A DNA stretch of 64,000 nt. Origin: Octopus vulgaris. Taxonomy: Eukaryota. Below the pieces are notes generated by a model, which was given only the letters and a program-made list of their open reading frames with translations, was not told where the DNA came from and did no database searches. A program made the position numbers and the translations under genes. The DNA is taken from positions 22,444,001-22,508,000 of the forward strand of contig OX597817.1 in assembly GCA_951406725.2 (NCBI GenBank). Direction: 5' to 3'. Of the stretch, positions 4,661-53,904 are shown piece after piece; position 1 is the first letter of the stretch, and every line of letters starts with the position of its first letter.

Positions 4661-4739
4661 ATCAACTTTTTGCCAAAGAATGAATATGAAAAGAGACTGA
4701 AGCCTTGTATCTGAATATTCATGGAGTTCTAGAACAGGA

Positions 4740-5080
4740 ACTTTTGATCTTCATGCAGGCTATCAATTTCTAGTTGTGAAGAAAATTACACATTTGGACA
4801 GTACAATTTCCAACAAAAGTAGCCAAGATACAGAGGTGAATCTATAAATACAGTCAGACGTAGTCATTTTCAGAAAGCTCAATAATTGATTGTGAAAACA
4901 ACAATGCATAAAGCTGTCAACAGAATATGAAGTATATCAAGCAATAGTACAATTTCATGTGTGTACCGAGCTGTGACGTACGCACTGTTTCATAGGCTTA
5001 TCAAAAAGTTAATGTGCTTCCAGATGCAACAGCTATGATCTATATGTGGCAAGGCCATATTTGCAACTGTGAGGTTCTGT
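4740..5080 (+). pseudogene. Highly decayed RTE-like RT fragment
   Basis: Residual VV..ITHLDSTIS...DTEVN...FRKL pattern resembling the RTE 'F.YLGS.IS...EV..RI' region. Confidence 0.4.
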
Positions 5081-5090
5081 TTATATACCT

Positions 5091-5320
5091 ATTTCTTTAC
5101 TACTCACAAGGGGCTAAACACAGAGGGAATAAACAAGGACACACAAACGGATTAAGTCGATTACATCGACCCCAGTGCGTAACTGGTACTTAATTTATCG
5201 ACCCTGAAAGGATGAAAGGCAAAGTCGACCTCGGCAGAATTTGAACTCAGAACGCAACGGCAGACGAAATACCGCTAAGTATTTCGCCCGGCATGCTACC
5301 GTCCCTGCCAGCTCGCCACC
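5091..5320 (-). mobile_element. SINE family A
   Basis: Full ~230 bp copy, the reverse complement of 5604-5835. Confidence 0.9.
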
Positions 5321-5603
5321 TTATATACCTAATGCTTATATACCTTATATACCTAATGTTTATATACCTAATGCTGAGTGTATCCTACAGGAATTGCAGG
5401 GGTGGTGGGTGAGATACCTGTCCTATATGTTGTTCTAGTTTCCCTAAGGACAAACTCTATGGTGAGTTGAAAGGAAGAAACTATTGACACGAGCATCCAA
5501 ATATCCATTATGAAGATATTATCAAACAATATATTAAAGAGAGTGTGGCTTGATTGCGAGTGCATGTGAGAAAACAACAATTGACTGCATACAATACAAT
5601 ACT

Positions 5604-5835
5604 AGGCGGTGAGCTGGCAGAAACATTAACACGCCGGGCGCAATGCGTAGCCGTATTTTGTCTGTCGTTACGTTCCGAGTTCAAATTCCGCCAAGGTCGA
5701 CTTTGCCTTTCATCCTTTCGGGGTCGATAAATTAAGTACCAGTTAAGCACTGGGGTCGATGTAATCGACTTAATCCCTTTGTCTGTCCTTGTTTGTCCCC
5801 TCTGTGTTTAGCCACTTGTGGGTAGTAAAGAAATA
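5604..5835 (+). mobile_element. SINE family A with TSD
   Basis: GGCGGTGAGCTGGCAGAA head and GTTCAAATTCC B box, flanked by the direct repeat AATTGACTGCATACAATA. Confidence 0.9.
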
Positions 5836-7924
5836 AAAATTGACTGCATACAATATTGGGTGGGTTATAAAGAAAGGGGGTAAATGATACAGAGTCAAAA
5901 TGAAGGAAATAGCTAGAAGAAAAGAAAAAAGTTAGTGCAATATCCATTACAATAGCCCTAGTAGTAGTTTTCTGCGGTCCATGAGAGTAGAGTTATACTA
6001 GCACCTCTGGTCTACAATCTCAAGAAATAACAAAGCATCACTAATAAATTTTCTCCACTACATTTACAAGAAAAAACAAACACTGCCTCTCCTACTATCA
6101 AGTCATAAATGGTTTCATGTGGCTGCCAAGAGGAACAGACACATACTTACATGCTCACTCATGTAAACATGATGCTCACAAACAACATACATACATGCAC
6201 ATACATGCATATGCAAGTAAACTATTTGCAAAAGCCAATAGGCAAACAACTATTTGGTTGTTCAGTCTGCTAGTAATAGCAATAAAATATACTTACGGAT
6301 CTGAAAGAGCAATGTAAACCTAAATAGAGTGTGTCAGCAATAAAATGTCTTAGTCAAGGCTGGTGAACATTTAATCTTAGGTTTGCGGAATCTGAGGGTT
6401 GACCTAGGTAAAATGGTATTTATTATTTAAGTTTGTATATAATGTTTTTGTGAAGTTTCTCATATAAACACTTATATGTAAAATATATACAAAGATAATG
6501 TTTATAAAATATACCACTATCACCACAAAATACATAAGCACATCCAAGACCTGAATGCTATTTAAACTTCACATTAATTGCTTTCTTTAAAACATTCCAG
6601 ACAAACGAATTTTACATGTCTATGTTTCTGTAAAGACCAGCGCTATGCTTGAACGAACAAAAGTAATAACATTTGGGTGTAAGATACAGTGACATATAGG
6701 GTTATTGAATTAGCTACCATCTGAAACATTATTATCAGGCATTTAACCAATCCATGGCTAATAGCAGAAAGGATTTTGGAAATCAGTGAGGATTATTTAC
6801 CAAAAATTTAGTCGTTGGAAAAACATTTTTAATGAAATAAATAATTCTGAATAAAATCATTCACAGTAATATGGAAAATAAACATTGCATATATTTTAAA
6901 TCACTTTTTCCATTTCTTTTTGAGATACTTTTAAATGTATTCACACATACATGCTACTCCCTCTTTCTCTGTCTCTTATATATATATGTACATTATACAC
7001 ACACACACAGATAGATAAACAAATGCAGAGAGAGAGAGAGAAAGGTGGAGAGACATTATGTACCTATATTTCTTGTTTATGAAAATTGCACTGAATATTT
7101 TTTAAAAATATTTTTACCATGATCAATCAATAAATATTCAATCGATATTTATTTCACACAAGTGAGATAAACAGAGTCAACTATCTGACTTTTCCCATCA
7201 AATGTTGCAATCAAAGAGTGATCAAATCTATTCACTTCATGAGAGAGAGGGAAAGAGAGAAAAAGGAGAGAGAGAGAGAGAGAGCAAGAAGAGAGAGAGG
7301 CTCACAAAACTATACTCAGGAATCAGGGAAATATTTGGTTTTTAAACAAATTTAATAATCCAAATGCTCGCCATCATCACTGTCATCGTCATCATCAACA
7401 TCAGTGTCATCATCAGTATCATTAGTAGTGATAACAGCAGTGACGCTTTGTCAGCGTCATCACAATCATTATCTCTTTACATCTGTTCACCATATAGACA
7501 TTTCAGAAGAAATATAGTCAATCATGGCCATCATTATGCAGAGTCACAAGTTATAGAATCAAAAATAGATCACTCTTCTCTACTGACTTCAGCTTTGGCT
7601 CTGAGCTGCTGTAATCCAGTTGCTGATATGATTGCTTAATCTCCTCATTTGGCATTTAGGTACAGCCTTGTATCTAATGAGAACTAATGAAAAACCTACA
7701 GCTCTTATATCCATTGCTACCTCCTATTATTATATGCGCAATGCAATATATAACTATATACTTAATACACCAGAGCAAACTGATTTACATTTTCCAAATA
7801 CAGTCAGAGGTATTTTTGAAAATTTGTAATACATTCCAGGGATTCTCTATTTTATGTTCCAAGGATGAACAAAGGTACACAACATTATTTACATTATTTA
7901 CATTGGTACTCTTGTTTTAGATTA

Positions 7925-32164: not shown

Positions 32165-32195
<31 letters not shown>

Positions 32196-32322
32196 TATTA
32201 GAGACAAAACCACTATTTTGCAAAACGTCTCTAATAATATTTTATAATATTTTACTATAAAATTGGATTTAATCCTAAATCTGATTTTTTTCCCTGTAAA
32301 GTTGGATTTATTCCCTAATATT

Positions 32323-32365
<43 letters not shown>

Positions 32366-33978: not shown

Positions 33979-35069
33979 CATGTGTGCTCTCTCTTGCACA
34001 TCATTACCCATATTGTTATCCATTGCTCTCTCACATTACATCCCACCTAAGTCTCATTGTTGAAATACTCTCTTGCACCACACAATCACATTTCAAATAC
34101 TTTCTTTACCACTACCTCCCAACCTTTCTTTCTTTTTCATTCTCTCTTCCCCATTATGCTACCCACGTTGTATTTTTCTTCACTCTCATTAGTCAATGAA
34201 AATGGTGTAGCTGTAATTATTGTGTCTCTTCTAATACACCCTCCCCTTGCACTCTCATTCCTACTGTGATGTTTCTTCAACCATGCTCTCATTCTTACTA
34301 TTTCATTGCTATACTTCTGTCTCTGAGCTCTCTTCAATTAATCCTCTTGGTCTTGTCTTAAATGAAGAGAGAGAAGATAGAGTGTATATACAGACATTCA
34401 TACTCAAAAAGGATTATGTTCAATGACAAATATGGAAGGCAGTGTACTGATTTGGTTGGACCTTTTAGGCTTTAATGAAAGTATGTAAAAAAACGAGGTG
34501 GATAATAATGTATTTTCACTAAGTAAGTCAAAGAATGTAAGAACCTTTACATCATAATTATAGTCTCTTAAAGATAAGTAAGATGGATAATGTTTTAATA
34601 TCTTTCGATTAATTTCATTAGGAACAAATTGGCTGGGATAGAAGGAAACAGTATTTTGTTCCAATGGTGCACAAGCCAGAAAGTGCCCTAGATTATTAAG
34701 GGTGTGTGTGTGTAAGAAAAATATGGCTGCATGGTTAAGAAACTCATTATGTACCCATGTGCTTTCAGGTTTAATCACTCTCTGTGGAAAATAGAATAAG
34801 TGTCTTATACTATAACTTTAGACTAAACAATGTTTTGTGAGTAAATTTAGAAGATGGAAACTGCGTGGCAGCCTGTTGTGTATATGTATGTGTGTGATTA
34901 TGTGAGCATGTATGTTTTTTGTGTGTGTGTATGAGTGTGTTTTTATGTTTGTTGGCCTCCCCACTGACTGGTGTTGGTTTGTTTACATCCCTGTAATTTA
35001 GCAGTTCAAGAAGAGAGAGAAATACAGTAAGTGCTAGCATTACAAATAAGTCCTGTTATCAATTTGTTT

Positions 35070-35505
35070 AACTAAAAAGCACCAATCAATTGTGGCCGTT
35101 TCCAGCCTGCCCTGGCACCTGTGCCGGTGGCACATAAAAAGCACCATCCATATGTGGCCGATGCCAGTGCTGCCTTGACTGGATTCTGTGCCGGTGGCAC
35201 ATAAAAAGCACCATCTGATCGTGGCCATTGCCAGCCTCCTCTGGCACCTGTGCCGGTGGCATGTAAAAAGCACCAACTGATTGTGGCTGTTGCCAGCCTC
35301 CCCTGGCACCTGTGCCGGTGGCACGTAAAAAGCACCCACTACACTCACGGAGTGGTTTGTGTTAGGAAGGGCATCCAGCTGTAGAAACACTGCCAGATCA
35401 GACTGGAGCCTGGTGCAGTCTCCTGGCTTCCCAGACCCTGGTCGAACCGTCCAACCCATGCTAGCATGGAAAACGGACGTTAAACGGATGATGATGATGA
35501 TGGCG
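35070..35505 (+). mobile_element. Family C element with ~60 bp tandem repeats, nested in an old family B-like SINE (34760-35580)
   Basis: Repeated CTGTGCCGGTGGCA..TAAAAAGCACC units. The host SINE tail CCAGCATGGCCACAG...GACTGAAAC resumes at ~35530. Confidence 0.8.
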
Positions 35506-36218
35506 ATGAAATAATCCTTCAAGGCAACTACTCCAGCATGGCCACAGCCTAATGACTGAAACAAATAAAAGAAGTAAGATGAAGTTATTAAAGAGGATGC
35601 TGAGGACATATCTTACACATGAGATGACAAACATCAGAACCAAGTTGCGATATGTAAATATGGTGGAACCATCCAGAATAATCTAGCATATAGAATTGCA
35701 TGTTATAACATTTGATAATATCGATGATTATGATGACACTATTTATACATACGTAAACAGGCAATTTCATATACTCTTATACAAAATTACCCTCACCTCA
35801 CAAACTGACACGCATATGAATATGCAGACACAAACTCCTGCACAAACTTCTGTTTTGGAAGATGTATGATAAGTAAAACTAGAAAATACTACAAAAGAAA
35901 AATGATAAGAGATTGATTTCCGATGTTTACAAAGTTGTTATAGACAGATTTGATTTTTCTTTCTAGTTATTCTTTTTTTTCTTTTTTTTTTTTCAGACAA
36001 TAGGACTAATGAAGCACTAATAGGAATTATGGAAAGAGGAAGACAATTCTAAAGCCAATTGTCTGTGCACTTTTATTCCTATATTTCCGGAAGCTTTATT
36101 ATTATAAATATATATTGTATTTGGCAAAGCATTCAACATATGTGAATATATATGTATGATAATGATGATGATGATGATGATGATAATGATGATGCTGATA
36201 ATGATGATGATGATGATG

Positions 36219-36252
<34 letters not shown>

Positions 36253-36928
36253 TGTGTGTGTGTGTAAAATCAATTATGTATATATATATATGCTATAGAT
36301 TAAGTATATCTTTGTTATAGATTAGGCATTATATGTATATATACCTGTATAAATGTATATAAATGTGTGTGTTTCTGTATATTCTCCTTTATATAACTCA
36401 TAAACACAGACACACACACACAAATATATATATATACACACACATATATATATGCATGTATGTATGTATGTATGTATGTATGTTTGTAATTGTTCCTTGA
36501 TACAAGCTTGGCCGTGTGGTTAAGCAGCTTGCTTCACAACAACATGGTTTTGGGGTTCACTACCATATTGTGGCTCCATTGTCAAATGTCATCTTCTATG
36601 GTCTCAAGTGAAACAAAGACACACACATACACATATATACACAGAAGGCTGCTACACAGTTTCTATCTACTAAATTCACTCACAAAACATTGGTTAGATT
36701 GAGGCTATAGTATAAGACACTTATATTGCATTTCATATAGTTGGATTGAACCTGATAGTACATGGGTGCTTAAAGAGCTTCTTAACCATACAGCCATGCC
36801 TTTCTTGCACACATATCCTTCCTGAATAGTCTAGGGTGCTTTCTTGCTTAAACTCATCATTTTGGTTGATGAAAACCTGTATGTGTGTATATATATATAT
36901 TATACGTATATATATATATATATATATA

Positions 36929-37198
36929 CGTATAATAGGGATAACCACTAAGTGGACATCCAATATGCTAGAAGAAGATCACTTATGAAAAGAATGTTCT
37001 CTTGAGAACATTATTTTTTGTAGTTAGATTGTAAGTGATCTTCCTCTACCATATTGGATGTCCACTTAGTGGTTATCCCTATTATACGCATGTATAGAAA
37101 TTTTTCTGAATTTTCAGATTTTTCTGTATGCTAGGCTACTGGTTTTAAATTGATGTTAATTAAATCAATATTCAATTTATCACCCTCATTATTTAAAT
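36929..37198 (+). mobile_element. Hairpin-plus-tail insertion in (TA)n, second family (probable PLE terminus)
   Basis: Inverted arms at 36929-36985 and 37032-37088, followed by a ~110 bp unpaired tail homologous to 48558-48672. (TA)n on both sides. Confidence 0.7.
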
Positions 37199-37226
37199 AT
37201 ATATATGTATATATATATGTATATAT

Positions 37227-37302
<76 letters not shown>

Positions 37303-37379
37303 TAAATATTAGGGAATAAATCCAAATTTACAGGGAAAAAATCAGATTTAGGATTAAATCCAATTTTATAGTAAAATAT

Positions 37380-40300
37380 TATAAAATATTATTAGAGACA
37401 AAACCACTATTTTGCAAAACAAACAAGGAAAGACTTAATCAATACATAAAATTTTAATAAATAGTCAAAAAAACCGCCACTACAATTGTTTCTTGTCTTG
37501 ATCGACAATCTTCAGGTGGACTTCCAATCTAAAATATCAATATTTTAAAATATAAAAATAATAATTTTAAAATAATTAAAGTATGAATGAAAAAATATAA
37601 ATATATAATCCATATATAATCAATATATAAACAATATATAAACTAAAATAAACCTATCAACAATTAAATATAAAATATAAAATATAAAATATAAAATATA
37701 AAACAAAACAAAAAAATAATAATATAATAATAAACTATATATACACCCATACACATATACCTAATTATATATAACCATATCTAACTACATACACTAAATC
37801 ACACACCTATATATATATCCCTATACATACACATAAAAACGTCTAGGCAACTATAAATAAATAAAATAGCTAAATACTTCAACACAATACTTATTCATAC
37901 TCCCACACACACACACATACAACCCACATTCACGCTCTAGAAAACGGACATCACTTAAAATTATGAACGGAGAAATGGAATAAATGGAATTAAAAATTAT
38001 ATTCACTTGGTAAAACGAACACTACTTAAAAATTATGAATGAAACAATGCAATAAAACAACAGACATCGCAAATAGACACAAATTACTACGAATTCCTTA
38101 ACAAACCTACCATGATAAACCAAAACTCATAAAAACATATAATGATAACATCTCCCTTTACTAAACTCTATAACATACCTATATAGCAATCCCCCTAACC
38201 TAAACATTCACACACAAATACACACACATAAACCACACACCCACGACATATACAAATACCCACACCACTTACACATACCTATACATACATATAAACCTCA
38301 ACATATACTCCAAAAACCCACTCAACCCCACACAGACAAATAAACACAAAAATTATGAATGGATTCTTTTATAAAACTACCATGATAAGCTAAAACTCAA
38401 AAAACATAAATGATAAAACCTCCCTTTACTAAACACTATAACATACTTATATAGCAATCCCTTTAACCTATACATTCACACACAAATACACACACGTAAA
38501 CCACACACCCATAACAAATACAAACACCCACCCCACTCACACACACCCACAAGTACATATAAGCCTCAACATATACACCAAACAAAATTACTTTACCAAG
38601 GAACTTAACATATGTATAAAAAATATATAACCGCTCTGGAAACGAACATCTTCAAAATAATGAATGGAGAAATGGAATAAATGGAATTAAAAATAATATT
38701 CACGTGGCAAAACGAACACCACTCAAAAATTATGAATGAAACAATGTAATAAAACAACCAACATCGAAAATAGACAAATTACCACGAATTCCCTAAAAAA
38801 AAACATGATAAACCAGAACTCTTAAAAACATATAACGATAAAATCTCCCTTTGCTAAACTCTATAACAAACCTATATAGCAATCCCCCTAACCTAAACAT
38901 TCACACACAAAAAAACACACACGTAAACCACAGACCCACAACTTATACACATACCTATACTAACTTATAAACCTCAATATACACCAAAAACCCACTCCCT
39001 CCCCACACAGACAAATTAACACATACATCCCAAAACCTAAATAATAAACCCATATACACATTCACACACAAACACACACACACGCAAAACACACACACAC
39101 AACAGATACATATACTCCCTCAATATACGCATATACATACTCACTAAACTCGATATATACAACAATATTTACACACCCACACTCATACAGATATATAAAT
39201 TATACAACTAAAAAGTCACACACAATCTCATATACATAAACACTCCAATAAAAAACAACATTAAATACATCGTAATTAACCAGAATATCAAAAATAACAA
39301 TATGACATAAGGAGAAATAAAATACATACTTACAAGTCAGTTTCAAATTATGAAGTGAAATTAAATTCTTAGCCGTTAAAAAAATCAAACCAAAATTACG
39401 TTACCATAGAAATATAACTTATGTAAAAAAAGAATACGTGCCATGGAAAGTAAACGTCATTTAAAATTATGAATGGAGAAATAAAATAAATGGAACTAAA
39501 AACTATATCCACGTGGCAAACCATCACTACTTAAAAAAATTTTATTATGAATGGATTCTTTAATAAAACTACCATAATAATAAATTATTATATACATTTA
39601 TGAGCTTTAGCTCATCTTAGCAGCTCTAACAAACAACTTGCAGTAACCCAAATCTATTCTCGATGCCTGCCTTACTACTACACTATTCCATTCCCAATTC
39701 CAAGCAACGCTAGCCCACCACCCGGTTACAATTCCCAACTCCACCCATTCATTCACAATTTCAACGACGTTCACCTCCACAGCTCTACATATAAGCCTCA
39801 ACATATACTCCGGAGATTCGCTTTCACATCCGTGCGGATGGGTGAGAGTATACATTAAGTGTAGTGATGGGGCTCCCATTACTATACACATTTGTACCTG
39901 TGTGGTAGTCTCCATGTGTATATTCACGCACGGGTATAAATGCAGGGGGTACACGCGCACGGCATGTACGTGTACCCTCACATGTACATATGCATGCTAG
40001 TTTGGCTCGATATGTGCAACAATGTAATCGCGCCCGCATACATGCATATGGGCGAGTTGCACAATCAAAATACGCACACGTGTGTGTGCGTTCCCTGGTT
40101 GTGCAATTCACCCATCTGGGTGTGAGTGGGTGTATGCGTATTGCTGTGGATGTCGAGCTTAATACGTATGTATATGAGTGTGTATTGGGGGGTTGTACGT
40201 ATTTATTGTGTGCATGTGCTTCACGCACGTGCGTCCATGTATGGATGAATATATTGGGATTGCTATGTGGGTGTAAATTGGGTATGGAGGGGGGAGTTTT

Positions 40301-40883
40301 GTCATTGTAAGGGTGTAGGTTTCATTTGTGATGGTTGTTTGTTGGTGATTTTTAATATGTTCTGTATATTTGGGTTAGTTATGTATTATTCTAGTGTGTA
40401 TAATTGTATACATATGATTGGTGTAAGTGGGATTAAACCCATTTTTGGGGATGTATGTGTTTATTTGTCCGTATGGGGCGGGAGTGGCCGTTTGGTGTAT
40501 ATTTTGAGGCTCACATGCAATTCCAGGTACGCGCGAATGAAGTGGGCACTTATATTTGTTATGGGTGTGTATACTTTATTATAACAGACAATACCCAAAT
40601 AAAATCTGTCAATTCAACATACCAAATGAAAAACAAAAAACAAAGGGATCGTAAACATTCACACATACATACAAAACTCAATAAAAACACCACTAAATAA
40701 CACCCATCAACATATAAATATATCCTCCAAAATACATATAATAAATGCATAATAAAAATACATAATAAAATAAAATTTAAAAAAAAAATATATAAATAAA
40801 GAAAATAAAAAAAATCTAATATAAATTATTAAAGTTTTAACATACCATAAACTGTTATATTAATATACATTAAAAATGAACTA
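37380..40883 (-). repeat. Left inverted arm of the PLE (~3.5 kb)
   Basis: Reverse complement of 43572-47100. It starts TATAAAATATTATTAGAGACAAAACC and ends ...TACATTAAAAATGAACTA. The ORF track shows mirrored spurious ORFs (39200- vs 45068+, 40455+ vs 43755-). Confidence 0.95.
37477..37519 (-). ncRNA. Minimal type I hammerhead ribozyme (left arm)
   Basis: Exact reverse complement of 46961-47003. Confidence 0.88.
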
Positions 40884-40938
40884 TTATATAATATTGATAA
40901 TTTTGTATATTGAGTGTAATACCTCAATTTCGTAAATT

Positions 40939-43458
40939 ATGGATTTTACAGGTAAGATAGAACCGCTGTTTTGGGATTCATCTTTGAAAGATATTCCTAT
41001 TCCTTCTAGAAAGGAATTTATCTTGAAACTTGTTAATAATGTTAAGGATTTTATTTCTAGAATTAAATGGAAAGCTTTTTACTATAATTTTTATTTATTT
41101 AATGATATTGATAGTAGGAATGATAATTTTACCTCTAAATTTAAATCTAGAAAGGAACCTCCATTTAATAAAGAATTACAATTACTTGAAGATAGTATAT
41201 GGAAGGTGGTAAAAAATATTGAATTCCATAAATACCCAAATAGAAATAATGAATATTTAAGGAATTTAGCAATTAAAATTAAAGATATGAGAAATATGGA
41301 TGGTATTATAGTACAATCTGATAAAACAAGGAACCTATATAAATTAGATGTTAAATTATATGATAAACTATTAGGAAAAGAAATAATTAAAAAATATAAA
41401 ATTGTTCCAGATGATATTCTTTATAATATTAATAAGGCCTCTAAAGCAGTAATGTTAAAATATGAGTTGGATAATAAAACTGAACCTTATGTACCTTTGC
41501 ACCCCAGAATTACTCTTAAAGACCATAAAGATAATTTTTATTCAGACCCTAAAGTTAGATTAATTTGCCCATGTAAATCGGACCTAGGTAAATTAAGTAA
41601 ATTTATTTTAGATAAATATATTGATAAGTTAAATAAACTTAATTATTTAAAATTATGGTTTAGTAATAATAATACATTGAAATGGTTTAATAATATTAAA
41701 GATAAAAATCGTTATAAATTTATTCAAATAGATATAGATAATTATTATTCTTCTATTAATGAAATTGTATTTAATAAAGCGCTTATTTTCGCAATGAATA
41801 AAGTGGGTATGTCACGGGAAGAAGTTAATGTAATTAAAATGGCTAGGAAATCGCTAATTAAATATAAAAATAAATTATGGGCTAGGAATGATACTAGAGA
41901 TTGTTTTGATATACCTACGGGAGCACCAGATTCTGCACAGGCTACTGATTTAGTAGGTATTTTTCTTTTATCTGAACTCCAATTAGAAAATCTTAAGATA
42001 GAGGGTGGTTTATATAGAGACGATCTTCTACTAGTTACAAAGAATTGTACTAATAGGAATCTAGAAGTATATAAGAAAAAACTATATAGTTTCTTTAAAA
42101 GATATGGTTTAAGTATTACTATATATAAGGAGAATTATAATGTTAATTATTTAGATGTTAATTTTAATCTTATTACAGGTAAAACACAACCATATCATAA
42201 ACTTAATGAGAACCTTAGATATATAAATGTTAATAGTAATCACCCATTTTCTATTAAAAAATCGTTGATTAATAATATAAGTAAACGTATTTCATTACTC
42301 TCTTATGATATAGAGATTTTTAATAAACATGCTAATTATTATAATGAGGCCCTTAGAGGGGCAGGTTATAATAGGAATATTAAATTTTATAATATTAGTG
42401 ATAAAGATTTAATTGATAATTTTCGAGATACTTCTAATAATAATTATAATTTTGTTAGGTTTAGTGGTAAAAATAATAGATATTATAAAAAAAATAATAA
42501 AAATGATAAAAATATAAATAAGAATAATAATAATAATAATAAATATAATAATAATAATAATATAAATAAGAATAATAAAAATAAAAATAAATTTAATAAT
42601 TATTATAATAATTATATTGATAAAATTAATAATATTAATAATTCCTTAAATGCTGTACATAGATATAATTTTGATAATAATTTTAATAAAATAAAGAATT
42701 ATAAATATATTTATAATAATGATAATAATAATAAGGTTAATAAGAATAAAATTTGGTTAATAGTTCCTTATGGAGATCAAGTAAAAACGAATATTATTAA
42801 AGAGATTTTAGATGTTATAGAACTATTTATTAGAGATAATCGTAAATATAGAAACATTTTCTCTTTTAATAATTTTGGAGTTGGTTATTCTACCACTAAT
42901 AATGTTGGTAACATTATTTCTTCATTTAATAAATATAAACTGAATAATTTTTATAAAAAGAAATTATTTGATAATAATATTAATAATGATAAAACTTATA
43001 TTAATTGTACATGTAGAGATAAATCTAATTGTATATTAAATAATAATTGTGATATTAACGATGTAGTGTATAAATGTATAGTTACATTACATGATAATAA
43101 CTTTAAGAATAATAATTACCCAAAAGCGGTTTATATAGGTTCTACTTCCTCAAAAATAAAACTAAGAATCGCACAACATATGAATTCTTTTAAAAATAAA
43201 AACTTAATCAACTCAACCGGACTTAGTAAGTACATTTGGAGTCTTAAATCACTAAATATTAATTATAGTTTAATTTGGGAAATAATTTGTAAAACTAAAT
43301 CATATACTATAGGAGCTAATTGTTGTTATTTATGCTCTAATGAGTTTAAAGAAATTTTATTTTATAAGTATGATAATTTACTTAATACTGGTGAAGAGCG
43401 CAAAATAAAATGCAGACATAAGTTACTTTACCCATATAATAAGTTTCATGATAAATAG
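40939..43458 (+). CDS. PLE polyprotein: reverse transcriptase, Asn-rich linker, Cys-rich motif, C-terminal GIY-YIG endonuclease (839 aa)
   Basis: RT motifs FIQIDIDNYYSSI (A), IPTGAPDS (B), GLYRDDLL (C), NYLDVNF (E); PLE thumb YINVNSNHPFSI; linker CTCRDKSNC; endonuclease VVYKC...VYIGST...RIAQH...E...LLN. This is the only long, complex ORF in the window. Confidence 0.95.
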   Translation: MDFTGKIEPLFWDSSLKDIPIPSRKEFILKLVNNVKDFISRIKWKAFYYNFYLFNDIDSRNDNFTSKFKSRKEPPFNKELQLLEDSIWKVVKNIEFHKYPNRNNEYLRNLAIKIKDMRNMDGIIVQSDKTRNLYKLDVKLYDKLLGKEIIKKYKIVPDDILYNINKASKAVMLKYELDNKTEPYVPLHPRITLKDHKDNFYSDPKVRLICPCKSDLGKLSKFILDKYIDKLNKLNYLKLWFSNNNTLKWFNNIKDKNRYKFIQIDIDNYYSSINEIVFNKALIFAMNKVGMSREEVNVIKMARKSLIKYKNKLWARNDTRDCFDIPTGAPDSAQATDLVGIFLLSELQLENLKIEGGLYRDDLLLVTKNCTNRNLEVYKKKLYSFFKRYGLSITIYKENYNVNYLDVNFNLITGKTQPYHKLNENLRYINVNSNHPFSIKKSLINNISKRISLLSYDIEIFNKHANYYNEALRGAGYNRNIKFYNISDKDLIDNFRDTSNNNYNFVRFSGKNNRYYKKNNKNDKNINKNNNNNNKYNNNNNINKNNKNKNKFNNYYNNYIDKINNINNSLNAVHRYNFDNNFNKIKNYKYIYNNDNNNKVNKNKIWLIVPYGDQVKTNIIKEILDVIELFIRDNRKYRNIFSFNNFGVGYSTTNNVGNIISSFNKYKLNNFYKKKLFDNNINNDKTYINCTCRDKSNCILNNNCDINDVVYKCIVTLHDNNFKNNNYPKAVYIGSTSSKIKLRIAQHMNSFKNKNLINSTGLSKYIWSLKSLNINYSLIWEIICKTKSYTIGANCCYLCSNEFKEILFYKYDNLLNTGEERKIKCRHKLLYPYNKFHDK

Positions 43459-43571
43459 CAATAATAGTTCCCTATTAGATTACTTTAGTTTAGTTTAAAT
43501 AATATATTTTTTGGTTATGTAGTCTAGGCTTTAATTATAGTTAGTCTTTATTGATATTTCTTTGTTTTAAT

Positions 43572-46500
43572 TAGTTCATTTTTAATGTATATTAATATAA
43601 CAGTTTATGGTATGTTAAAACTTTTATAATTTATATTAGATTTTTTTATTTTCTTTATTTATATAGTTTTTTATTTTTATTTTATTTTAGTATGTATTTT
43701 TATTATGCATTTGTTATATGTATTTTAGAGGATATATTTATATGTTGATGGGTGTTATTTAGTGGCGTTTTTATTGAGTTTTGTATGTATGTGTGAATGT
43801 TTACGATCCCTTTGTTTTTTGTTTTTCATTTGGTATGTTGAATTGACAGATTTTATTTGGGTATTGTCTGTTATAATAAAGTATACACACCCATAACAAA
43901 TATAAGTGCCCACTTCATTCGCACGTACCTGGAATTGCATGTGAGCCTCAAAATATACACCAAACGGCCACTCCCGCCCCATACGGACAAATAAACACAT
44001 ACATCCCCAAAAATGGGTTTAATCCCACTTACACCAATCATATGTATACAATTATACACACTAGAATAATACATAACTAACCCAAATATACAGAACATAT
44101 TAAAAATCACCAACAAACAACCATCACAAATGAAACCTACACCCATACAATGACAAAACTCCCCCTCCATACCCAATTTACACCCACATAGCAATCCCAA
44201 TATATTCATCCATACATGGACGCACGTGCGTGAAGCACATGCACACAAAAAATACGTACAACCCCCCAATACACACTCATATACATACGTATTAAGCTCG
44301 ACATCCACAGCAATACGCATACACCCACTCACACCCAGATGGGTGAATTGCACAACCAGGGAACGCACACACACGTGTGCGTATTTTGATTGTGCAACTC
44401 GCCCATATGCATGTATGCGGGCGCGATTACATTGTTGCACATATCGAGCCCAACTAGCATGCATATGTACATGTGAGGGGGTACACGTACATGCCGTGCG
44501 CGTGTACCCCCTGCATTTATACCCGTGCGTGAATATACACATGGAGACTACCACACAGGTACAAATGTGTATAGTAATGGGAGCCCCATCACTACACTTA
44601 ATGTATACTCTCACCCATCCGCACGGATGTGAAAGCGAATCTTCGGTGTATATGTTGAGGCTTATATGTAGAGCTGTGGAGGTGAACGTCGTTGAAATTG
44701 TGAATGAATGGGTGGAGTTGGGAATTGTAACCAGGTGGTGGGCTAGCGTTGCTTGGAATTGGGAATGGAATAGTGTAGTAGTAAGGCAGGCATCGAGAAT
44801 AGATTTGGGTTACTGCAAGTTGTTTGTTAGAGCTGCTAAGATGAGCTAAAGCTCATAAATGTATATAATAATTTATTATTATGGTAGTTTTATTAAAGAA
44901 TCCATTCATAATAAAATTTTTTTAAGTAGTGATGGTTTGCCACGTGGATATAGTTTTTAGTTCCATTTATTCTATTTCTCCATTCATAATTTTAAATGAC
45001 GTTTACTTTCCATGGCGCGTATTCTTTTTTTACATAAGTTATATTTCTATGGTAACGTAATTTTGGTTTGATTTTTTTAACGACTAAGAATTTAATTTCA
45101 CTTCATAATTTGAAACTGACTTGTAAGTATGTATTTTATTTCTCCTTATGTCATATTGTTATTTTTGATATTCTGGTTAATTACGATGTATCTAATGTTG
45201 TTTTTTATTGGAGTGTTTATGTATATGAGATTGTGTGTGACTTTTTAGTTGTATAATTTATTTATCTGTATGAGTGTGGGTGTGTAAATATTGTTGTATA
45301 TATCGAGTTTAGTGAGTATGTATATGCGTATATTGAGGGAGTATATGTATCTGTTGTGTGTGTGTGTGTTTTGCGTGTGTGTGTGTTTGTGTGTGAATGT
45401 GTATATGGGTTTGTTATTTAGGTTTTGGGATGTATGTGTTAATTTGTCTCTGTGGGGAGGGAGTGGGTTTTTGGTGTATATTGAGGTTTATAAGTTAGTA
45501 TAGGTATGTGTATAAGTTGTGGGTCTGTGGTTTACGTGTGTGTTTTTTTGTGTGTGAATGTTTAGGTTAGGGGGATTGCTATATAGGTTTGTTATAGAGT
45601 TTAGCAAAGGGAGATTTTATCGTTATATGTTTTTAAGAGTTCTGGTTTATCATGTTTTTTTTTAGGGAATTCGTGGTAATTTGTCTATTTTCGATGTTGG
45701 TTGTTTTATTACATTGTTTCATTCATAATTTTTGAGTGGTGTTCGTTTTGCCACGTGAATATTATTTTTAATTCCATTTATTCCATTTCTCCATTCATTA
45801 TTTTGAAGATGTTCGTTTCCAGAGCGGTTATATATTTTTTATACATATGTTAAGTTCCTTGGTAAAGTAATTTTGTTTGGTGTATATGTTGAGGCTTATA
45901 TGTACTTGTGGGTGTGTGTGAGTGGGGTGGGTGTTTGTATTTGTTATGGGTGTGTGGTTTACGTGTGTGTATTTGTGTGTGAATGTATAGGTTAAAGGGA
46001 TTGCTATATAAGTATGTTATAGTGTTTAGTAAAGGGAGGTTTTATCATTTATGTTTTTTGAGTTTTAGCTTATCATGGTAGTTTTATAAAAGAATCCATT
46101 CATAATTTTTGTGTTTATTTGTCTGTGTGGGGTTGAGTGGGTTTTTGGAGTATATGTTGAGGTTTATATGTATGTATAGGTATGTGTAAGTGGTGTGGGT
46201 ATTTGTATATGTCGTGGGTGTGTGGTTTATGTGTGTGTATTTGTGTGTGAATGTTTAGGTTAGGGGGATTGCTATATAGGTATGTTATAGAGTTTAGTAA
46301 AGGGAGATGTTATCATTATATGTTTTTATGAGTTTTGGTTTATCATGGTAGGTTTGTTAAGGAATTCGTAGTAATTTGTGTCTATTTGCGATGTCTGTTG
46401 TTTTATTGCATTGTTTCATTCATAATTTTTAAGTAGTGTTCGTTTTACCAAGTGAATATAATTTTTAATTCCATTTATTCCATTTCTCCGTTCATAATTT

Positions 46501-47100
46501 TAAGTGATGTCCGTTTTCTAGAGCGTGAATGTGGGTTGTATGTGTGTGTGTGTGGGAGTATGAATAAGTATTGTGTTGAAGTATTTAGCTATTTTATTTA
46601 TTTATAGTTGCCTAGACGTTTTTATGTGTATGTATAGGGATATATATATAGGTGTGTGATTTAGTGTATGTAGTTAGATATGGTTATATATAATTAGGTA
46701 TATGTGTATGGGTGTATATATAGTTTATTATTATATTATTATTTTTTTGTTTTGTTTTATATTTTATATTTTATATTTTATATTTTATATTTAATTGTTG
46801 ATAGGTTTATTTTAGTTTATATATTGTTTATATATTGATTATATATGGATTATATATAGGTTATATATGGATTATATATTTATATTTTTTCATTCATACT
46901 TTAATTATTTTAAAATTATTATTTTTATATTTTAAAATATTGATATTTTAGATTGGAAGTCCACCTGAAGATTGTCGATCAAGACAAGAAACAATTGTAG
47001 TGGCGATTTTTTTGATTATTTATTAAAATTTTATGTATTGATTAAGTCTTTCCTTGTTTGTTTTGCAAAATAGTGGTTTTGTCTCTAATAATATTTTATA
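43572..47100 (+). repeat. Right inverted arm / long 3' region of the PLE (~3.5 kb)
   Basis: Starts TAGTTCATTTTTAATGTA, 113 bp after the stop codon, and ends GGTTTTGTCTCTAATAATATTTTATA at (TA)n. Mostly G/T-rich with internal subrepeats. Confidence 0.95.
46961..47003 (+). ncRNA. Minimal type I hammerhead ribozyme (right arm)
   Basis: CCAC-CTGAAGA-TTGTC(gatcaa)GACAA-GAAA-CAATTG-TA-GTGG: stem I, CUGANGA core, stem II, GAAA, palindromic mini stem III and a GUA cleavage triplet. Confidence 0.88.
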
Positions 47101-47101
47101 T

Positions 47102-47133
<32 letters not shown>

Positions 47134-47345
47134 CGCTATGGGCTCCATGTGGGCAGTCATCTAAAAGTTTTTGTGCATTTTGATGCTGACATAAGTTCCT
47201 TGTTTTTCCTGATGAGAAGGTGGCATAATGCACCCCTTATTCCTTCGAAATTAGGAATATGCAGCCTTCGAAACTTATGTTGAAAATAAAGGAATTTTGT
47301 TAATTCATCGTTCAACTCCATTTTTTCATTTATCTATATATACAT

Positions 47346-47384
<39 letters not shown>

Positions 47385-47849
47385 TATATACATAACTAGA
47401 TAGATAGCTAGATAGATTGATTCATTTAAGCAGCTTTTGTATGAGAGGATTTTCTTATTGTGAAACCTTATTCCAAACAAGGTAATATTTCCCCATAGTT
47501 TCCTGGAAGACTGGAAATAAACAACATCACTACTTTGGTGGACATGCTTGAATACAATCATCACGTAACGTCAAAATATCAATCGTTAAAACAGAACTGA
47601 AACACAAAAAGAAAAATAATCCACCTTTTTATTATTAAGGACACACATCTACATGCTCACACACATTCACATTCTCATGTGCACGCGTGCACATGCACAC
47701 TCTCACACACACACACATCAGGTGCAAAACCTGATGAAAATACTAGATGTGGACTAAAATGTGATTTTTATTGCAGCTGAAAAAGTTTCACAAACTGTTT
47801 CTCAGTGTTTCACATAAAGGTTTGTCAAACAGTCATCTATCTATCTAAC

Positions 47850-48189
47850 ATATAACAATATTGACCGAGGTTACCGTGGTCTTTTTCGTAGGCTCTTCTT
47901 CCCGCGGATAAACCTTATCTGCTTCCCCCTTTACACCGTACATCATGACACTGTGATACACGATCCCTATTGATCGTTTTTTTTCCTCTTCCCCTTTTTT
48001 TCCTCTTTTTTCTTTTTTCGTTTCTTTTGTTTCTTTTCCTTTTTTTTCTTCTTTTATTCTTTTTTCCCTTTTACGATCCCTTTTGATCGAAAACCTACAC
48101 CACTTTTTTTTTTTTCATCCCCCAAAAGAAAAGCTCTACCTTGTAATTTGTCCCATCTGTGTGCAGCCCTGTGTGGCAAATAAAGAAAC

Positions 48190-48190
<1 letters not shown>
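47850..48190 (+). mobile_element. L1/Tx1-like LINE 3' UTR fragment in (TATC)n
   Basis: Homologous to 52470-52772. (TATC)n on both sides. Confidence 0.8.
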
Positions 48191-48265
<75 letters not shown>

Positions 48266-48270
48266 ATACA

Positions 48271-48672
48271 TATGAGAGGAATGATCACTATGTGGACAAC
48301 CCTTATGCTAGAAGTAGATCCGCTATGGTCTTACCACTAAGGAATGTTCTCAAGAAAATTTAGCAAATACCAGAACGTTAACTGTTAATAGTGAAACATG
48401 TTTATGGTTAATCTATATTTTTTTTACTTTTCATTTGTCTTGCTCGCTTACGTTCTGGTGTTTGCTAAATATTCTTGAGAACATTCCTTAGTGATAAGAC
48501 CATAGAGGATCTACTTCTAGTATAAGGGTTGTCCACATAGTAGTCATCCCTCTCATACGTATGTACTACAATTTTCTGAACCTTCAGATTTTAATATGCT
48601 AGACCACTGGTTTTAAATTGAATGTTAATGAAATTAATATCCAATTCTTCACCTTCATTTTAAATTTAAATC
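48271..48672 (+). mobile_element. Hairpin-plus-tail insertion, second family
   Basis: Inverted arms at ~48271-48378 and 48450-48557, then a tail TTTTCTGAA..TTCAGATTTT..TATGCTAG..ACTGGTTTTAAATTGA shared with 37089-37198. Confidence 0.7.
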
Positions 48673-48685
48673 ATATAAATATAAA

Positions 48686-49976
48686 CATAGGGTCTGGTGA
48701 ATGAATTGTCGTCTAAATCATGCAAAATGAAAATAACACTGACGTCTCATTTTAGCAGGTATATTTACCAAGATTACATAGAAATATCTTGAAATACTAA
48801 AGAGGTGCAGGAGTGGCTGTGTGGTAAGTAGCTTGCTTACCAGCCACATGGTTCCGGGTTCAGTCCCACTGCGTGGCATCTTGGGTAGTGTCTTCTGCTA
48901 TAGCCCCGGGCCGACCAATGCCTTGTGAGTGGATTTGGTAGATGGAAACTGAAAGAAGCCTGTCGTATATATGTATATATATATATATATGTGTGTGTTT
49001 GTCCCCCTAGCATTGCTTGACAACTGATGCTGGTGTGTTTACGTCCCCATCACTTAGCGGCAAAAGAGACCGATAGAATAAGTACTGGGCTTACCAAGAA
49101 TAAGTCCTGGGGTCGATTTGCTCGACTAAAGGCAGTGCTCCAGCATGGCCGCAGTCAAATGACTGAAACAAGTAAAAGAGAAAAGAGAGAGAGAGAGTAA
49201 ATTTATTCAATAAAATCACTATTGGCTTCAATTACGGCCAATAGACGAGTTTGAAATCTTCTGCAACTCTTCTGGAAGGTCTCCTTGTTTAAGTTGGGGA
49301 ATGCTGACATAATGCTTGCCTTCAGTTCATCTTTGGTATAACAAGGAGATTTGTTGGTCTCTCACTCAAATGCATCCTACACATAGTAATGAAGTGGTTT
49401 GCAGTGCGAGGAGTTATGTGGCCAGATGTTAGTGGTGATGTGGTTGTAGAAATTGTCTGATAGCCATGAATGTGTTCTCCTACTTGTGCGGCTTGGTGTA
49501 GAGTCCTGTTGCCAGACACAGGGTGTTCCAGCAGCCACCTTCTTGATCCAGAGCAGCACTACCTACTCCGGGCACTTGATGTAGGCCTCCGTGTGGAATC
49601 TGAGACTCTGTATAAAGATGAATGGAGGCAAAACATCGCCATCGCTAGTGATCACTCCAAACATCATGATGTTGAGTGGATGTTTGATTTTTATCACTCT
49701 CGATCACTCTCGGTACATGTGTTGGGGACATAGCAAACCAACGGTTGTTCTGTGTCTTCATCTGTTTGTAGTGGAGCTTCCAGCATTAGTGCCAAGCAGC
49801 ACAGCATATCGTTTCAAAATTTCTGGCAGAGTGAATTGCATCATAGTGCTGTTTTTCTCACAGACAGTGCCCAACTAACCCTACTTTACTGTGTAGTCAA
49901 TAAAATCAAAAACAAACAATATGCACGTGTGAAATTAAAGATAAAAATGGCAACAATTTACCGATCACACTCTGTA
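48686..49976 (-). mobile_element. Tc1/mariner (maT, DD37D-type) transposon relic interrupted by a SINE
   Basis: VWQQDSTPSRTS...IWPHNSSHCKPLHYYV has 37 residues between the second catalytic D and the (mutated) third position. Imperfect CAG.GT.TG..AATTGT termini. Confidence 0.75.
48802..49195 (+). mobile_element. SINE family B
   Basis: GGAGTGGCTGTGTGGTAAG A box, GGGTTCAGTCCC B box and GACTGAAACAAGTAAAAGAG tail. Confidence 0.92.
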
Positions 49977-50014
49977 TATACATGTACATAGGTATGCATG
50001 TATGTGTGTGCATA

Positions 50015-50286: not shown

Positions 50287-50619
50287 TATATATATGCACA
50301 TACACACACACACACACACATATATAATGAATGAGGGAAATGGAAAATGGGGTTTGCAAGAATCTTTATTCAACACAATGGTTGTTTTCATTGATCATGC
50401 ATTTGACCATTGAAGGTGCAACATTGTACAAGTAGCTGTGTTGACGCAACCAGTGCAGAATGCATCTCATCAGGTGTCTCATTCTAAATAAGATAACTTA
50501 CTAAATTCGTATGGTATGTTTGTGTCAACCACAAGTTGTTGGCTATATGGATGGAGGATGGATACAATTTCCATGTTATAACCAGTAAACAAATCTGGCT
50601 ATAGTTTACAATGAATGCA

Positions 50620-50854
50620 TGAGAGCTTTTTTTTCTTTTTTTCCTTTTTTTTTCTTCTTTTTTCCTTTTCCTTTCCTTTTGTTTCTTTTTTCTCCTTTTT
50701 TTTTCCCCTTTCACGATCCCTTTTGATCGAAAACCTATGCCATTTTTTATGTTTCCTTTGTTTTTTTTTTCTTTTTTTTTCATCCCCCAAAAGAAAAGCT
50801 CTACCTTGTAATTTGTCCCATCTTGTGCAGCCCTGTGTGGCTAATAAAAAAACA

Positions 50855-50855
<1 letters not shown>
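50620..50855 (+). mobile_element. L1/Tx1-like LINE 3' UTR fragment
   Basis: Ends CAGCCCTGTGTGGCTAATAAAAAAACA then (TATC)n. Confidence 0.75.
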
Positions 50856-50919
<64 letters not shown>

Positions 50920-50920
50920 G

Positions 50921-51580
50921 ACATGTGGGACGAGTCGGTTTATCAGCCGGGTCTATTGTCAATATTGTCACGGCTCCTTCCTTCAAATGGGAAGAGTTAT
51001 TTTCATCATCCTTGTGGCTATGGCGAAAGAATGTATCTGGTGGACGCGTCTGAAAGGATTAGAGACAAACACTTTCCTCTCTGGACAATCTCTCATCAAC
51101 TTTTTCAAGTATCACTTGAAAAGGAAAGTGAGAGTAGAGAGGCAAGTTTTGTCTAGCGGATGTTTAAAAAAAAGATGGGTAAATGTAGCAAGGATGGCAC
51201 GTTTGAATGACGAAGCCACCTTGAGCATATTCCTATGAACCCAGAAAATTTAAAACAGAGGGTTACCTACTTGCAAACAAATGTGGTAACATGTAACATC
51301 ATTGACCAAGGTTACCGTGGTCTTTTCCGTAGGGTTTTCTTCCTATGGATAAACCTTATCTGCTTCACCCTTCACACTTTACACCATGACACTGTGATAT
51401 ATGATCCCTATTGATCGTTTTATTTCCCTTCCCCCCCCCTGTTTTTTCTTCCTCCCCATTTACGATCCCTTTTGATTGAAAACCTAACCCACCTTTTTGT
51501 TTTTCTTTTCTCTCCCCGAAAAAGAAAAGCTCTACTTTGTAATCTGTCCCGTCTGTGTGCAGCCCTAATAAAGAAACATA
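50921..51580 (+). mobile_element. L1/Tx1-like LINE, 5'-truncated copy
   Basis: Duplicates 52085-52772 (IFIILVAMAKECIWWTRLKGLE...). (TATC)n on both sides. Confidence 0.85.
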
Positions 51581-51667
51581 TCTATCTATCTATCTATCTA
51601 CCTATCTATCTATCTATCTATCTACCTACCTACCTACCTACCTACCTACCTACCTACCTACCTATCC

Positions 51668-51701
<34 letters not shown>

Positions 51702-51702
51702 T

Positions 51703-52772
51703 TGTGTCGCGTTGCTCTCAAGCAACTCTGCCGTCCTGGGTCGACCTTAAGTGACTTCAACACAACCAAAGCATTCTATAGGGGTTTAGTGGAGGGGAGG
51801 TACGACGACGAGCTCGGGGCGAACCTGGACGTCGACGAGGAATACCTGACCCGCCTGTTCAGGTCGACTTTCGGGCCAGGGCCCATGGACAACTTCCAGA
51901 GATCCCTGGCCTGGCATTGCTACCGAGAAGCGCTACCCGTTCGGGATAAGCTCTACAGACATGGCTCGAGAAACACGGGGCCGACCTTCCCGAGATGCGG
52001 TCAGAGCGACGAAACCGTTCTGCACGCACTCGTTCAGCGTCCAACAATTTCCGACCTGTGGGCTTATGTCGAACAACTGCTGTCACGTGTGGGACGAGTC
52101 GGTTTATCAACTGAGTCTATCGTCAATATTGTCACGCCTCCTTCCTTCAAACGGGAAGGAAGAGCTATTTTCATCATCCTTGTGGCTATGGCGAAAGAAT
52201 GTATCTGGTGGACGCGTCTGAAAGGATTGGAGACAAACACTTTCCTCTCTGGTCAATCTCTCATCAACTTCTTCAAGTACCACTTGAAAAGGAAAGTGAG
52301 AGTAGAGAGGCAAGTTTTGTCTAGCGAATGTTTAAAAAAAGATGGGTGAATGTAGCAAGAATGGCACGTATGAATGACGAAGCCACCTTGAGCATAATCC
52401 TATGAACCCAGAAATTGAAAACAGAGAGTTGCTTATTTGCAAAAAAAAAAAAAAAAGAAATATAAAATGTGACTTCATTGACCGAGGTTACCGTGGTCTT
52501 TTCCGTAGGCTTTTCTTTCCACGGGTAAACCTCATCTGTCCTCCCTTTACACTTCATATTGACATTTCTGTGATAACATGATCCCTATTGATCATTTTTT
52601 TCCTCTCCCCCTTTTTTTAACCCCCTTTTTTGTCCTCTTTCTCTCCTTTTACGATCCCTTTTGATCGAAACTCCCCCTTCCATTTTTTTTTTTTTTTAAA
52701 CCTTCAAAAGAAAAGCTCTACCTTGTAATTTGTTCTATCTGTGTGCAGCCCTGTGTGGCTAATAAAGAAACA
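51703..52772 (+). mobile_element. L1/Tx1-like LINE, 5'-truncated, encoding the ORF2 C-terminal zinc-knuckle region
   Basis: TTKAFYRGL...LAWHCYREALPVRDKL...FPRCGQSDETVLHALVQR...LW is a degenerate CxxC-ET-H-C (zf-RVT-like) domain. GC-rich, with a T-rich 3' UTR and AATAAA, then (TATC)n. Confidence 0.85.
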
Positions 52773-52854
<82 letters not shown>

Positions 52855-53904
52855 CATGTCTGTTGGTCTGTCAGACGGTCTACCTATCTGTCTATGTGTC
52901 TGTCGATCTATCTATTTATCTATTCGTCTGTCTGTTGATCTATTTATTTATCTATCTGTCTGGCAGTCTGTCTGTCTATGTATTTATATGAAATTGTATT
53001 GTTGTTGCTTTTTAGAAAATTAACAAGCAAAAGCTTTATACATTTCATTTCATTGACAAAATAAATTCCAGAAATGAACATTACAGGTAAAATATCAAAG
53101 GCAGTGTATGTGACGTGGGCAGAAAACGTTCTAGTTTATTTTGGCTTTGTAAATTACTACTGCTTAAGACACTATATAGTCACTAATGCATCCTTTGTAA
53201 TATATTTCAAAGTGTGCTTGGTAAATACAGGATATGTATGTATAGATAGAATTGAAAAGGTTCACTGTGGAAATATAATAATCTGAATCAAAGGGAAAAT
53301 AGTTTCCTTTGCCATTAGTGTGCATGTGTGTGTGTATGTGTCTGTGTGTATGTTTGCATGTGTGTGTGTGTGTGTGCTCGTGTGTGTTTGTATGTGCATG
53401 TGTGAGTGTGAGACATCAAAAAATGAGAAAATCAGAATGTATAGTGGTATAAAAATTTGAGGCCAACATGAAAAATGGATTCATTTAGCCAAGGAAGTGT
53501 TTCCTGTCAGATAAAAAAAAAAAAAAAGTAACAATCAACTATTTACTTTCGGTGAAAAAAAAAAAATTAGTCTCCAGAATTTGATTTTGCACCAAAAGTT
53601 AATATAATACGCGATTGGTGAACAATGACCAATGGGATTTCAAAGAAAAAAAAAAAAATCAGTCAATATCAAGCTGAAAGCATGGTCATGCTTTTCAGCT
53701 GCTCTTGTCAAAAAAAATCTCATTGAAATTAATGATGTCATTGTTAATTTATTTAGCAGAGTGGCATCTGCTGATGACCTTATAGAAGGTACCAAATCTA
53801 TACAGATATGCATTCACATATGCCGGCATAGAATCATTCATGTATATTTACACATGTGCACATGGGTGTGTGTATATATATATATATATCGCTCTCTCTT
53901 TTAA

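Follow-up and report, generated by a model that had tools for sequence, protein, structure and literature searches.

Inverted arms in an octopus Penelope-like element family and their probable origin by double priming on one RNA

A 64,000-nt stretch of the Octopus vulgaris genome (GenBank assembly GCA_951406725.2, contig OX597817.1, forward-strand positions 22,444,001 to 22,508,000; hereafter the window, with positions counted from its first letter) contains a Penelope-like element (PLE) whose uninterrupted 839-amino-acid (aa) open reading frame (ORF) lies in the loop of a 3.5-kb inverted repeat, with an outward-pointing hammerhead motif in each arm and (TA)n adjoining both termini. Self-BLAST, an ORF scan and a motif search all recover this layout (Table 1). 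Is such a palindrome a fixed architecture with ends resembling terminal inverted repeats, as an earlier note on this DNA had proposed, or is it made anew when a copy inserts? Our answer, held at a probability of about 0.75, is that the inverted arm is made at insertion: both strands of a (TA)n target would be cut, each priming complementary DNA (cDNA) synthesis on one sense RNA at fixed sites ~85 nt apart. The element adds one more member to a known class, for which the locus is ordinary; more is to be learned from the family, which bears on two questions about PLEs, namely the origin of head-to-head inverted structures and why a retroelement keeps an intron, a retention whose significance has been called unknown (PMC8557442).

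Neither a Pfam search nor a PDB sequence search returned a match for the 839-aa protein. Of 40 hits in a search for homologues, 39 are 31-42% identical, and the named ones among these belong to the cephalopod Argonauta. When a structure model built on 24 sequences (predicted local distance difference test, pLDDT, 82) was submitted to Foldseek, the top nine rows were telomerase reverse transcriptases (RTs), and aa 707-819 of the model match the GIY-YIG catalytic domain of I-TevI (Z 10.2, root-mean-square deviation 2.6, 90 residues aligned). The ORF contains YRDD at aa 359, VVY at aa 709 and YIG at aa 732. Judged by its modelled fold and these motifs, the element is, as the earlier note had recognised, an endonuclease-bearing PLE with a telomerase-related RT and a GIY-YIG domain in one ORF. 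Further motifs are KWK at aa 43 (mostly RWK or RWR in the homologues), DKT at 128, CxCx5C at 690, CxxC at 796 and CxH at 825, and there is no CCHH; section 11 of PMC8557442 gives RWK, DKT, a CxCx5C linker, CxxC and CxH, and no CCHH, for the Hydra clade, to which the element probably belongs on these motifs. Another Hydra-clade trait, (TA)n at the ends, recurs in the family, with TA runs after 40/40 of the tail ends and 59/62 of the short ends distinguished below. The family also has pseudo-long-terminal-repeats (pseudo-LTRs) formed by partial tandem copies in direct or inverted orientation, and a tail at one of the two ends, as is characteristic of PLEs. A non-LTR retrozyme was ruled out: the window copy combines an ORF with opposed hammerheads, and the 250-nt tandem unit of one array (locus L132) excludes the hammerhead.

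The 29-nt terminal motif of the element has 1970 exact matches genome-wide; the first 100 listed include 29 neighbours in head-to-head orientation and none in tail-to-tail. Two fixed sites ~85 nt apart serve as outer ends, a longer "tail" end and a short end, and 29/29 exact pairs have one of each. Thirty-six of the 100 matches were unpaired, and 8 of the 28 that were fetched had a partner missed by the exact pattern. With these relaxed partners, one extra stub and two complex loci included, 38 of 40 two-ended insertions have one short and one tail end (P ~7e-10 if ends were independent at 0.5), as do 18/18 in a second set. In the window copy the left arm reaches ~85-90 nt further out, to ~37293-37298, and the right arm stops at ~47097-47100. 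The arms that the earlier note had treated as matching ends are a genuine inverted repeat, but they are not symmetric, the two termini differing by the tail on the left; its suggestion of priming at (TA)n at both ends agrees with the termini.

In most short two-ended insertions the sequence breaks off at window position 46952 and is followed by at most 23 nt matching element positions 45100-45122. The missing segment of 1829 nt has precise GT-AG ends, beginning GTAAGT and ending in a pyrimidine-rich tract and AG. Exact genomic matches number 502 for the donor 1 junction, 41 for donor 2 (4 nt later) and 433 for the unspliced acceptor, so that 543 in total are without the segment. The motif upstream is kept by 1 spliced match as against 72 unspliced ones, 4 of 100 listed spliced rows read past 45100, and the context of the start site matches the initiator-like TCACT described in A. 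vaga pseudo-LTRs. These intron-less matches are likely to be copies of spliced sense RNA stopping at a fixed 5' end, and the two alternative donors indicate a sense template. Since five hammerhead haplotypes occur both spliced and unspliced, splicing appears to have occurred repeatedly. An extra G at the start site, as if derived from a cap, is clear in three or four cases and is suggestive only, the remainder being explained by the partner arm. Transcription start, splice junctions, ribozyme and the two priming sites are all mapped to the base in this family, which opens the steps discussed here to direct test.

The two arms of an insertion agree with each other. Over the range covered by both lists, splice state is common to both arms in 46/46 pairs (20 spliced, 26 unspliced and 0 mixed, versus 22.6 mixed expected), and donor 2, which makes up ~8% of spliced matches, is present in both arms of 13/14 informative donor-2 insertions. 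In nine insertions (the window copy, L031, L088, L096, L097, L111, L118, L120 and L149) the arms are not nested, the short arm extending further 5' yet having no tail, so that neither arm can have served as template for the other. Differences within an insertion amount to 0.31-0.45%, nearly all of them private, and the between-insertion median is 1.8%. Overlaps of 1-5 nt are frequent at head-to-head joints, at a rate modestly above that expected by chance. Concordant and non-nested arms together suggest two primers on one RNA. The RT-endonuclease, as a putative dimer, would nick both strands of (TA)n; one 3' end would prime at the short site and the other at the tail site; both cDNAs would proceed toward the RNA 5' end, halting independently; and head-to-head joining of their 3' ends, in many cases at 1-5 nt of microhomology, would follow. 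In the window copy, the short-site cDNA would comprise 6.2 kb including the ORF, and the tail-site cDNA 3.6 kb. In LINE-1 twin priming, both target strands likewise prime cDNA on one RNA and the products join head to head by microhomology, but there the internal position at which the second primer anneals varies and the outcome is an inversion lacking a repeat, whereas in the octopus family both starts are at fixed sites near the same end, giving an inverted repeat.

Several observations weigh against double priming on one RNA. For the 839-aa protein the dimer is only a proposal, and the basis for splicing, start site and window junction is genome assembly DNA. Two insertions break the one-tail rule (L101, tail/tail; L102, short/short), and 20 of the 28 fetched unpaired matches have no partner arm within 7-10 kb, so that many insertions are one-ended. 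The arms of L167 differ in junction, and in 3/11 donor-2 pairs a single-base marker is not the same in both arms. Counts of microhomology are noisy, with 18/38 and several of 39 junctions poorly resolved in two tallies. Copy ends do not pile up at the predicted hammerhead cut, which leaves the idea that cDNA run-off recorded hammerhead cleavage unsupported. Finally, among the 100 rows listed, one head-to-head junction is seen in ~10 insertions and another in ~14.

These recurrent junctions favour a reading in which a few ancient splicing or deletion events gave rise to a non-autonomous, self-copying family, the spliced stubs, which would then reveal little about the template of each insertion; tandem or non-autonomous pseudo-LTR derivatives of PLEs have been described (bioRxiv 10.64898/2026.07.22.740005). 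We consider this unlikely, as the five haplotypes are found in both classes, two donors are in use and most junctions differ, and microhomology at a fixed 5' end predicts recurrent junctions anyway. Similarly improbable, in our view, is fold-back, in which one cDNA (or antisense RNA) folds and copies itself and a nuclease trims one arm, removing the tail. Self-priming of antisense RNA has been proposed for inverted PLE structures, a sense template not being excluded (PMC3846280). Fold-back also predicts a shared splice state and a single tail, many stubs are near-perfect palindromes with nested arms, and inverted and direct pieces share one private allele in each of L036, L043 and L047; it does not fit the nine insertions in which neither arm contains the other, and an antisense template would not yield a removed segment with sense-strand GT-AG ends and two alternative donors.

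If double priming on one RNA accounts for the stubs, the ORF-bearing copies require a further step. With the spliced RNA as template, only ~170 and ~260 nt separate the priming sites from the 5' end, and the products would accordingly be ~400-bp stubs without an ORF. Priming of an ORF-bearing copy would use the repeat of these sites further downstream, on an unspliced RNA of greater length (linear or circular), and the intron would thereby be kept. In ORF-bearing copies that downstream repeat almost always includes the intron, and 16/16 direct upstream pseudo-LTRs that cross the acceptor are unspliced; together these indicate that the template was probably not spliced mRNA. We give somewhat less than even odds to a ribozyme-excised circular RNA, as proposed earlier (PMC4209133). 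The acceptor lies 48 nt from the predicted hammerhead cut, and more than one round on a circle would yield a variable direct pseudo-LTR; the lack of a pile-up of copy ends at that cut counts against the circle. What favours it is indirect and comes from the loci L132 and L140, described below. Alternatively, the template may have been nascent linear read-through RNA. Pseudo-LTR and 3' region show no recurrent differences in 16 insertions, which fits a circle and also a young linear master. A full cycle can be proposed only tentatively, and is rather doubtful as a whole: one ribonucleoprotein would engage both (TA)n strands and two fixed sites on one sense RNA, with spliced mRNA giving dead palindromic stubs and an unspliced circle, copied for more than one round, giving full-length elements. 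If true, this would cover inverted arms, one-sided tail, variable direct pseudo-LTRs and intron retention together.

L132 (G000:C9:50396400-50399600) is a head-to-head array whose 250-nt unit spans both priming sites and the ORF start, in ~3 inverted and 9.6 direct copies. One of its ends is short and the other a tail end, its 10 whole units have no substitutions in common, and it is a candidate rolling-circle product. The same origin was ruled out for L133 (G000:C5:119297400-119301000), whose 41 units share variants; its ~42 tandem copies of an 85-nt piece of tail plus leader form a minisatellite grown from the element after insertion. In L134, L140, L142, L144 and L065 a 5' piece of the ORF is joined directly to the hammerhead or terminal region, at differing points; both arms of L140 share one novel junction, and a cryptic splice was ruled out for L065, where the joint is a 3-nt microhomology. 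The two-ended stub L152 (G000:C5:64451450-64452080) has three ~108-nt tandem units, each with a donor-2 spliced junction and a hammerhead, switching at the U-run.

Both arms carry an identical type-I hammerhead core, consisting of a 4-bp stem I, CUGANGA, a 5-bp stem II, GAAA and a palindromic stem III. Rfam at E<=1 over window positions 35000-50000 gave no hammerhead match, and minimum free energy folding is unremarkable (z ~-0.3). The case for the predicted ribozyme is made by the motif and by variation of stem II among sister subfamilies: older subfamilies have the same core with altered stem II and loop, and one keeps pairing through a change on both sides. By eye, 100 listed rows place ~45 copy ends at the U-run, which lies 46-55 nt into exon 2 and immediately 3' of the ribozyme; ~18 coincide with the predicted cut or lie slightly beyond it, ~17 fall at most 8 nt upstream of it, and a second set of matches shows further ends within the ribozyme. 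L129, L146, L070 and L150 are among the older hammerhead-variant subfamilies; L129 resembles a spliced stub of such a subfamily.

How typical is the layout of the window copy? Its single long inverted match pairs 37365-40883 with 47116-43572 (98.4% over 3547 columns, 28 mismatches, 7 gap openings). A genome-wide pattern search allowing <=1 mismatch retrieves the left inner junction a single time, and among 40 scored matches to it only the window spans it. Twenty of those matched copies were mapped with ~9.5 kb of flank to either side. In every one the leader is immediately preceded by a direct pseudo-LTR, between 20 nt and 3.2 kb in length, a feature absent upstream of the ORF in the window copy, as the earlier note had observed; 16/20 also have an inverted terminal piece further upstream (<=5.7 kb), and each breaks elsewhere than the window copy. 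Breakpoints of inverted arms span unit positions 482 to 6250 and none coincides with that of the window copy. Genome-wide, a direct tail precedes the leader in 34/38 non-array leader matches; 40 further matches sit in two arrays. Nor is the arm length exceptional, as had been supposed, arms of several kb being not unusual in the family (5.7 kb in L047). By this comparison of copies, the 3.5-kb arms are the window copy's version of the published Penelope layout, not fixed ends. A one-off 5' inversion, which the earlier note had held in reserve, comes closer to the truth, except that inversion is a routine insertion product and not an accident.

Long palindromes are a known long-read artefact, and this one was read from the assembly. 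Even so, a chimeric read or misassembly is very unlikely: the arms have 22 scored differences (0.64%), all private (8 to the left arm, 14 to the right), only the left arm has a tail, and the layout obeys the same rule as dozens of other insertions. A constitutive panhandle, with fixed long terminal inverted arms always flanking the ORF and an arm giving the promoter, is almost certainly wrong: the ORF closely fills the loop in the window copy, with hammerhead and (TA)n at each end, but the junction is unique, 20/20 other copies have a direct pseudo-LTR, no other breakpoint equals the window's, and the predicted start in the left arm (39356) is directed away from the ORF, which also makes an arm an unlikely source of the ORF promoter.

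Private changes in the window ORF amount to 0.23%, and this figure and the 0.64% between arms support the same age for arms and ORF. In an alignment of 19 ORF copies that omits 2 with internal deletions, shared polymorphisms are 15 synonymous and 4 non-synonymous, and private ones 28 synonymous and 60 non-synonymous (most diverged copy left out of the sum); the window ORF has 5 private changes, one of them at an RT column otherwise invariant. Judging from the 7/20 other copies with ORFs >800 aa, the family is young. The window copy itself, with no upstream sense promoter and a left-arm start directed outward, is probably an inactive dead end. A GC-richer stretch of the arm might act in both directions, against such inactivity. 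The close fit of ORF to loop is best read as chance on the right side, and possibly reflects a collision of two cDNAs on the left; 3 of ~16 two-ended copies (window copy counted) end <=20 nt from the other priming site, which is a hint only that such a collision is why the window copy begins at the tail site.

Much of this layout has precedents. Large inverted repeats varying in size are the most frequent form of D. virilis Penelope (PMC2377424), inverted-repeat insertions are described for A. vaga Pen2a (PMC3846280) and in a general scheme (PMC8557442), and the Hydra-clade Penelope-13_HM has an inverted copy joined at its 5' end (PMC8557442 File S1). The octopus family shares with D. virilis Penelope and Pen2a the partial tandem with a direct pseudo-LTR, the upstream inverted 5'-truncated copy, inverted repeats of varying size and a tail at one end, the last already known for PLEs (PMC8557442). 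In D. virilis Penelope the order is start site, short exon, intron, hammerhead and ORF (PMC4209133, PMC2377424), and the octopus family likewise has a start site followed by an intron in the 5' untranslated region that ends beside the hammerhead (PMC4209133). It differs in a tail of ~85-90 nt rather than 30-40 and an intron of 1.83 kb rather than 75 bp, and the window copy, unlike known inverted-repeat PLEs, has no direct pseudo-LTR. The unit is ~6.27 kb (ORF plus 3.6 kb of non-coding sequence), compared with 1.1-3.0 kb in 27 listed Hydra-clade families, for which "generally <3 kb" is a descriptive statement (PMC8557442). The ~110-aa Asn-rich disordered insert (44% N), like those described in A. 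vaga, also sets it apart from Hydra-clade families, and its hammerhead is unlike that of the Hydra-clade Hydra-1_Obim. The non-coding region has diverged internal direct repeats (<=419 nt, 84%) and an old inverted piece (71-85%) at window positions 43885-44356 and 45257-46525, with a further 512-nt segment or 1.76-kb duplication in other subfamilies; it probably grew by fixation of earlier tandem and inverted copies.

PAc, of the Poseidon clade, resembles the octopus family in starting reverse transcription at two adjacent sites that delimit the tail, in the cutting and extension of both target strands (in vitro for PAc, proposed for the octopus family) and in AT-rich targets (PMC11167929). 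Its start sites lie inside the ORF, those of the octopus family upstream of it, and the available portions of the PAc study neither tie the two sites to opposite strands of one insertion nor treat splicing (PMC11167929). Accounts of PLEs, in their accessible parts, describe intron retention, whereas the octopus family has hundreds of intron-less copies. The open-access literature searched, which did not take in the Penelope papers of 1997-2006, yielded no report of abundant spliced or intron-less PLE copies or of double priming on a single RNA in PLEs. The features of the window copy and one neighbouring stub are collected in Table 1.

Table 1. Positions of element features in the 64,000-nt window.
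Feature	Positions	Strand	Basis
Independent, very small two-ended stub from this family inside (TA)n: short end inverted, tail end direct	32189..32330	.	
Left (TA)n target	37197..37292	.	
Left arm: inverted, 5'-truncated copy of the 3.6-kb non-coding 3' part; ends in the long ("tail") terminus	37293..40883	-	
Tail, ~85-90 nt, left arm only; elsewhere in the family leads straight into the 55-nt leader	37293..37382	-	
Minimal type-I hammerhead motif in left arm, cut predicted after 37481	37477..37519	-	motif
Inferred intron, retained copy in left arm, 1805 nt	37529..39333	-	
Inferred exon 1 and start site in left arm (start 39356), directed away from ORF	39334..39356	-	
Native 5' leader, last 55 nt (left arm to ATG); join to left arm genome-unique	40884..40938	+	
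839-aa ORF: telomerase-like RT ~aa 10-490, Asn-rich insert aa 493-601, CxCx5C linker aa 690, GIY-YIG aa 707-819	40939..43458	+	
3' region, first 113 nt (stop to right arm); no duplicate in left arm	43459..43571	+	
Right arm: element's own 3' non-coding region (pseudo-LTR sequence), ends at short terminus	43572..47097	+	
Inferred transcription start (initiator-like TCA+1CTT) and 23-nt exon 1	45100..45122	+	
Inferred 1829-nt GT-AG intron, second donor 45127; retained in window copy	45123..46951	+	DNA comparison
Type-I minimal hammerhead motif, right arm, 9 nt past acceptor; predicted cut after 46999	46961..47003	+	motif
Right (TA)n target	47098..47133	.	

Two other structures lie near the element. 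Just to its left, between TA runs, is a hairpin at 36916-37101 with 70-nt arms (91% complementary) and a 46-nt loop; it shows no relation to the element in self-comparison and is possibly a miniature inverted-repeat transposable element or a stub of another family. At 50600-52900, an 800-bp direct repeat interleaved with (TATC)n carries ORF pieces that we take to resemble the C-terminal zinc-binding part of a long interspersed nuclear element (LINE) protein.

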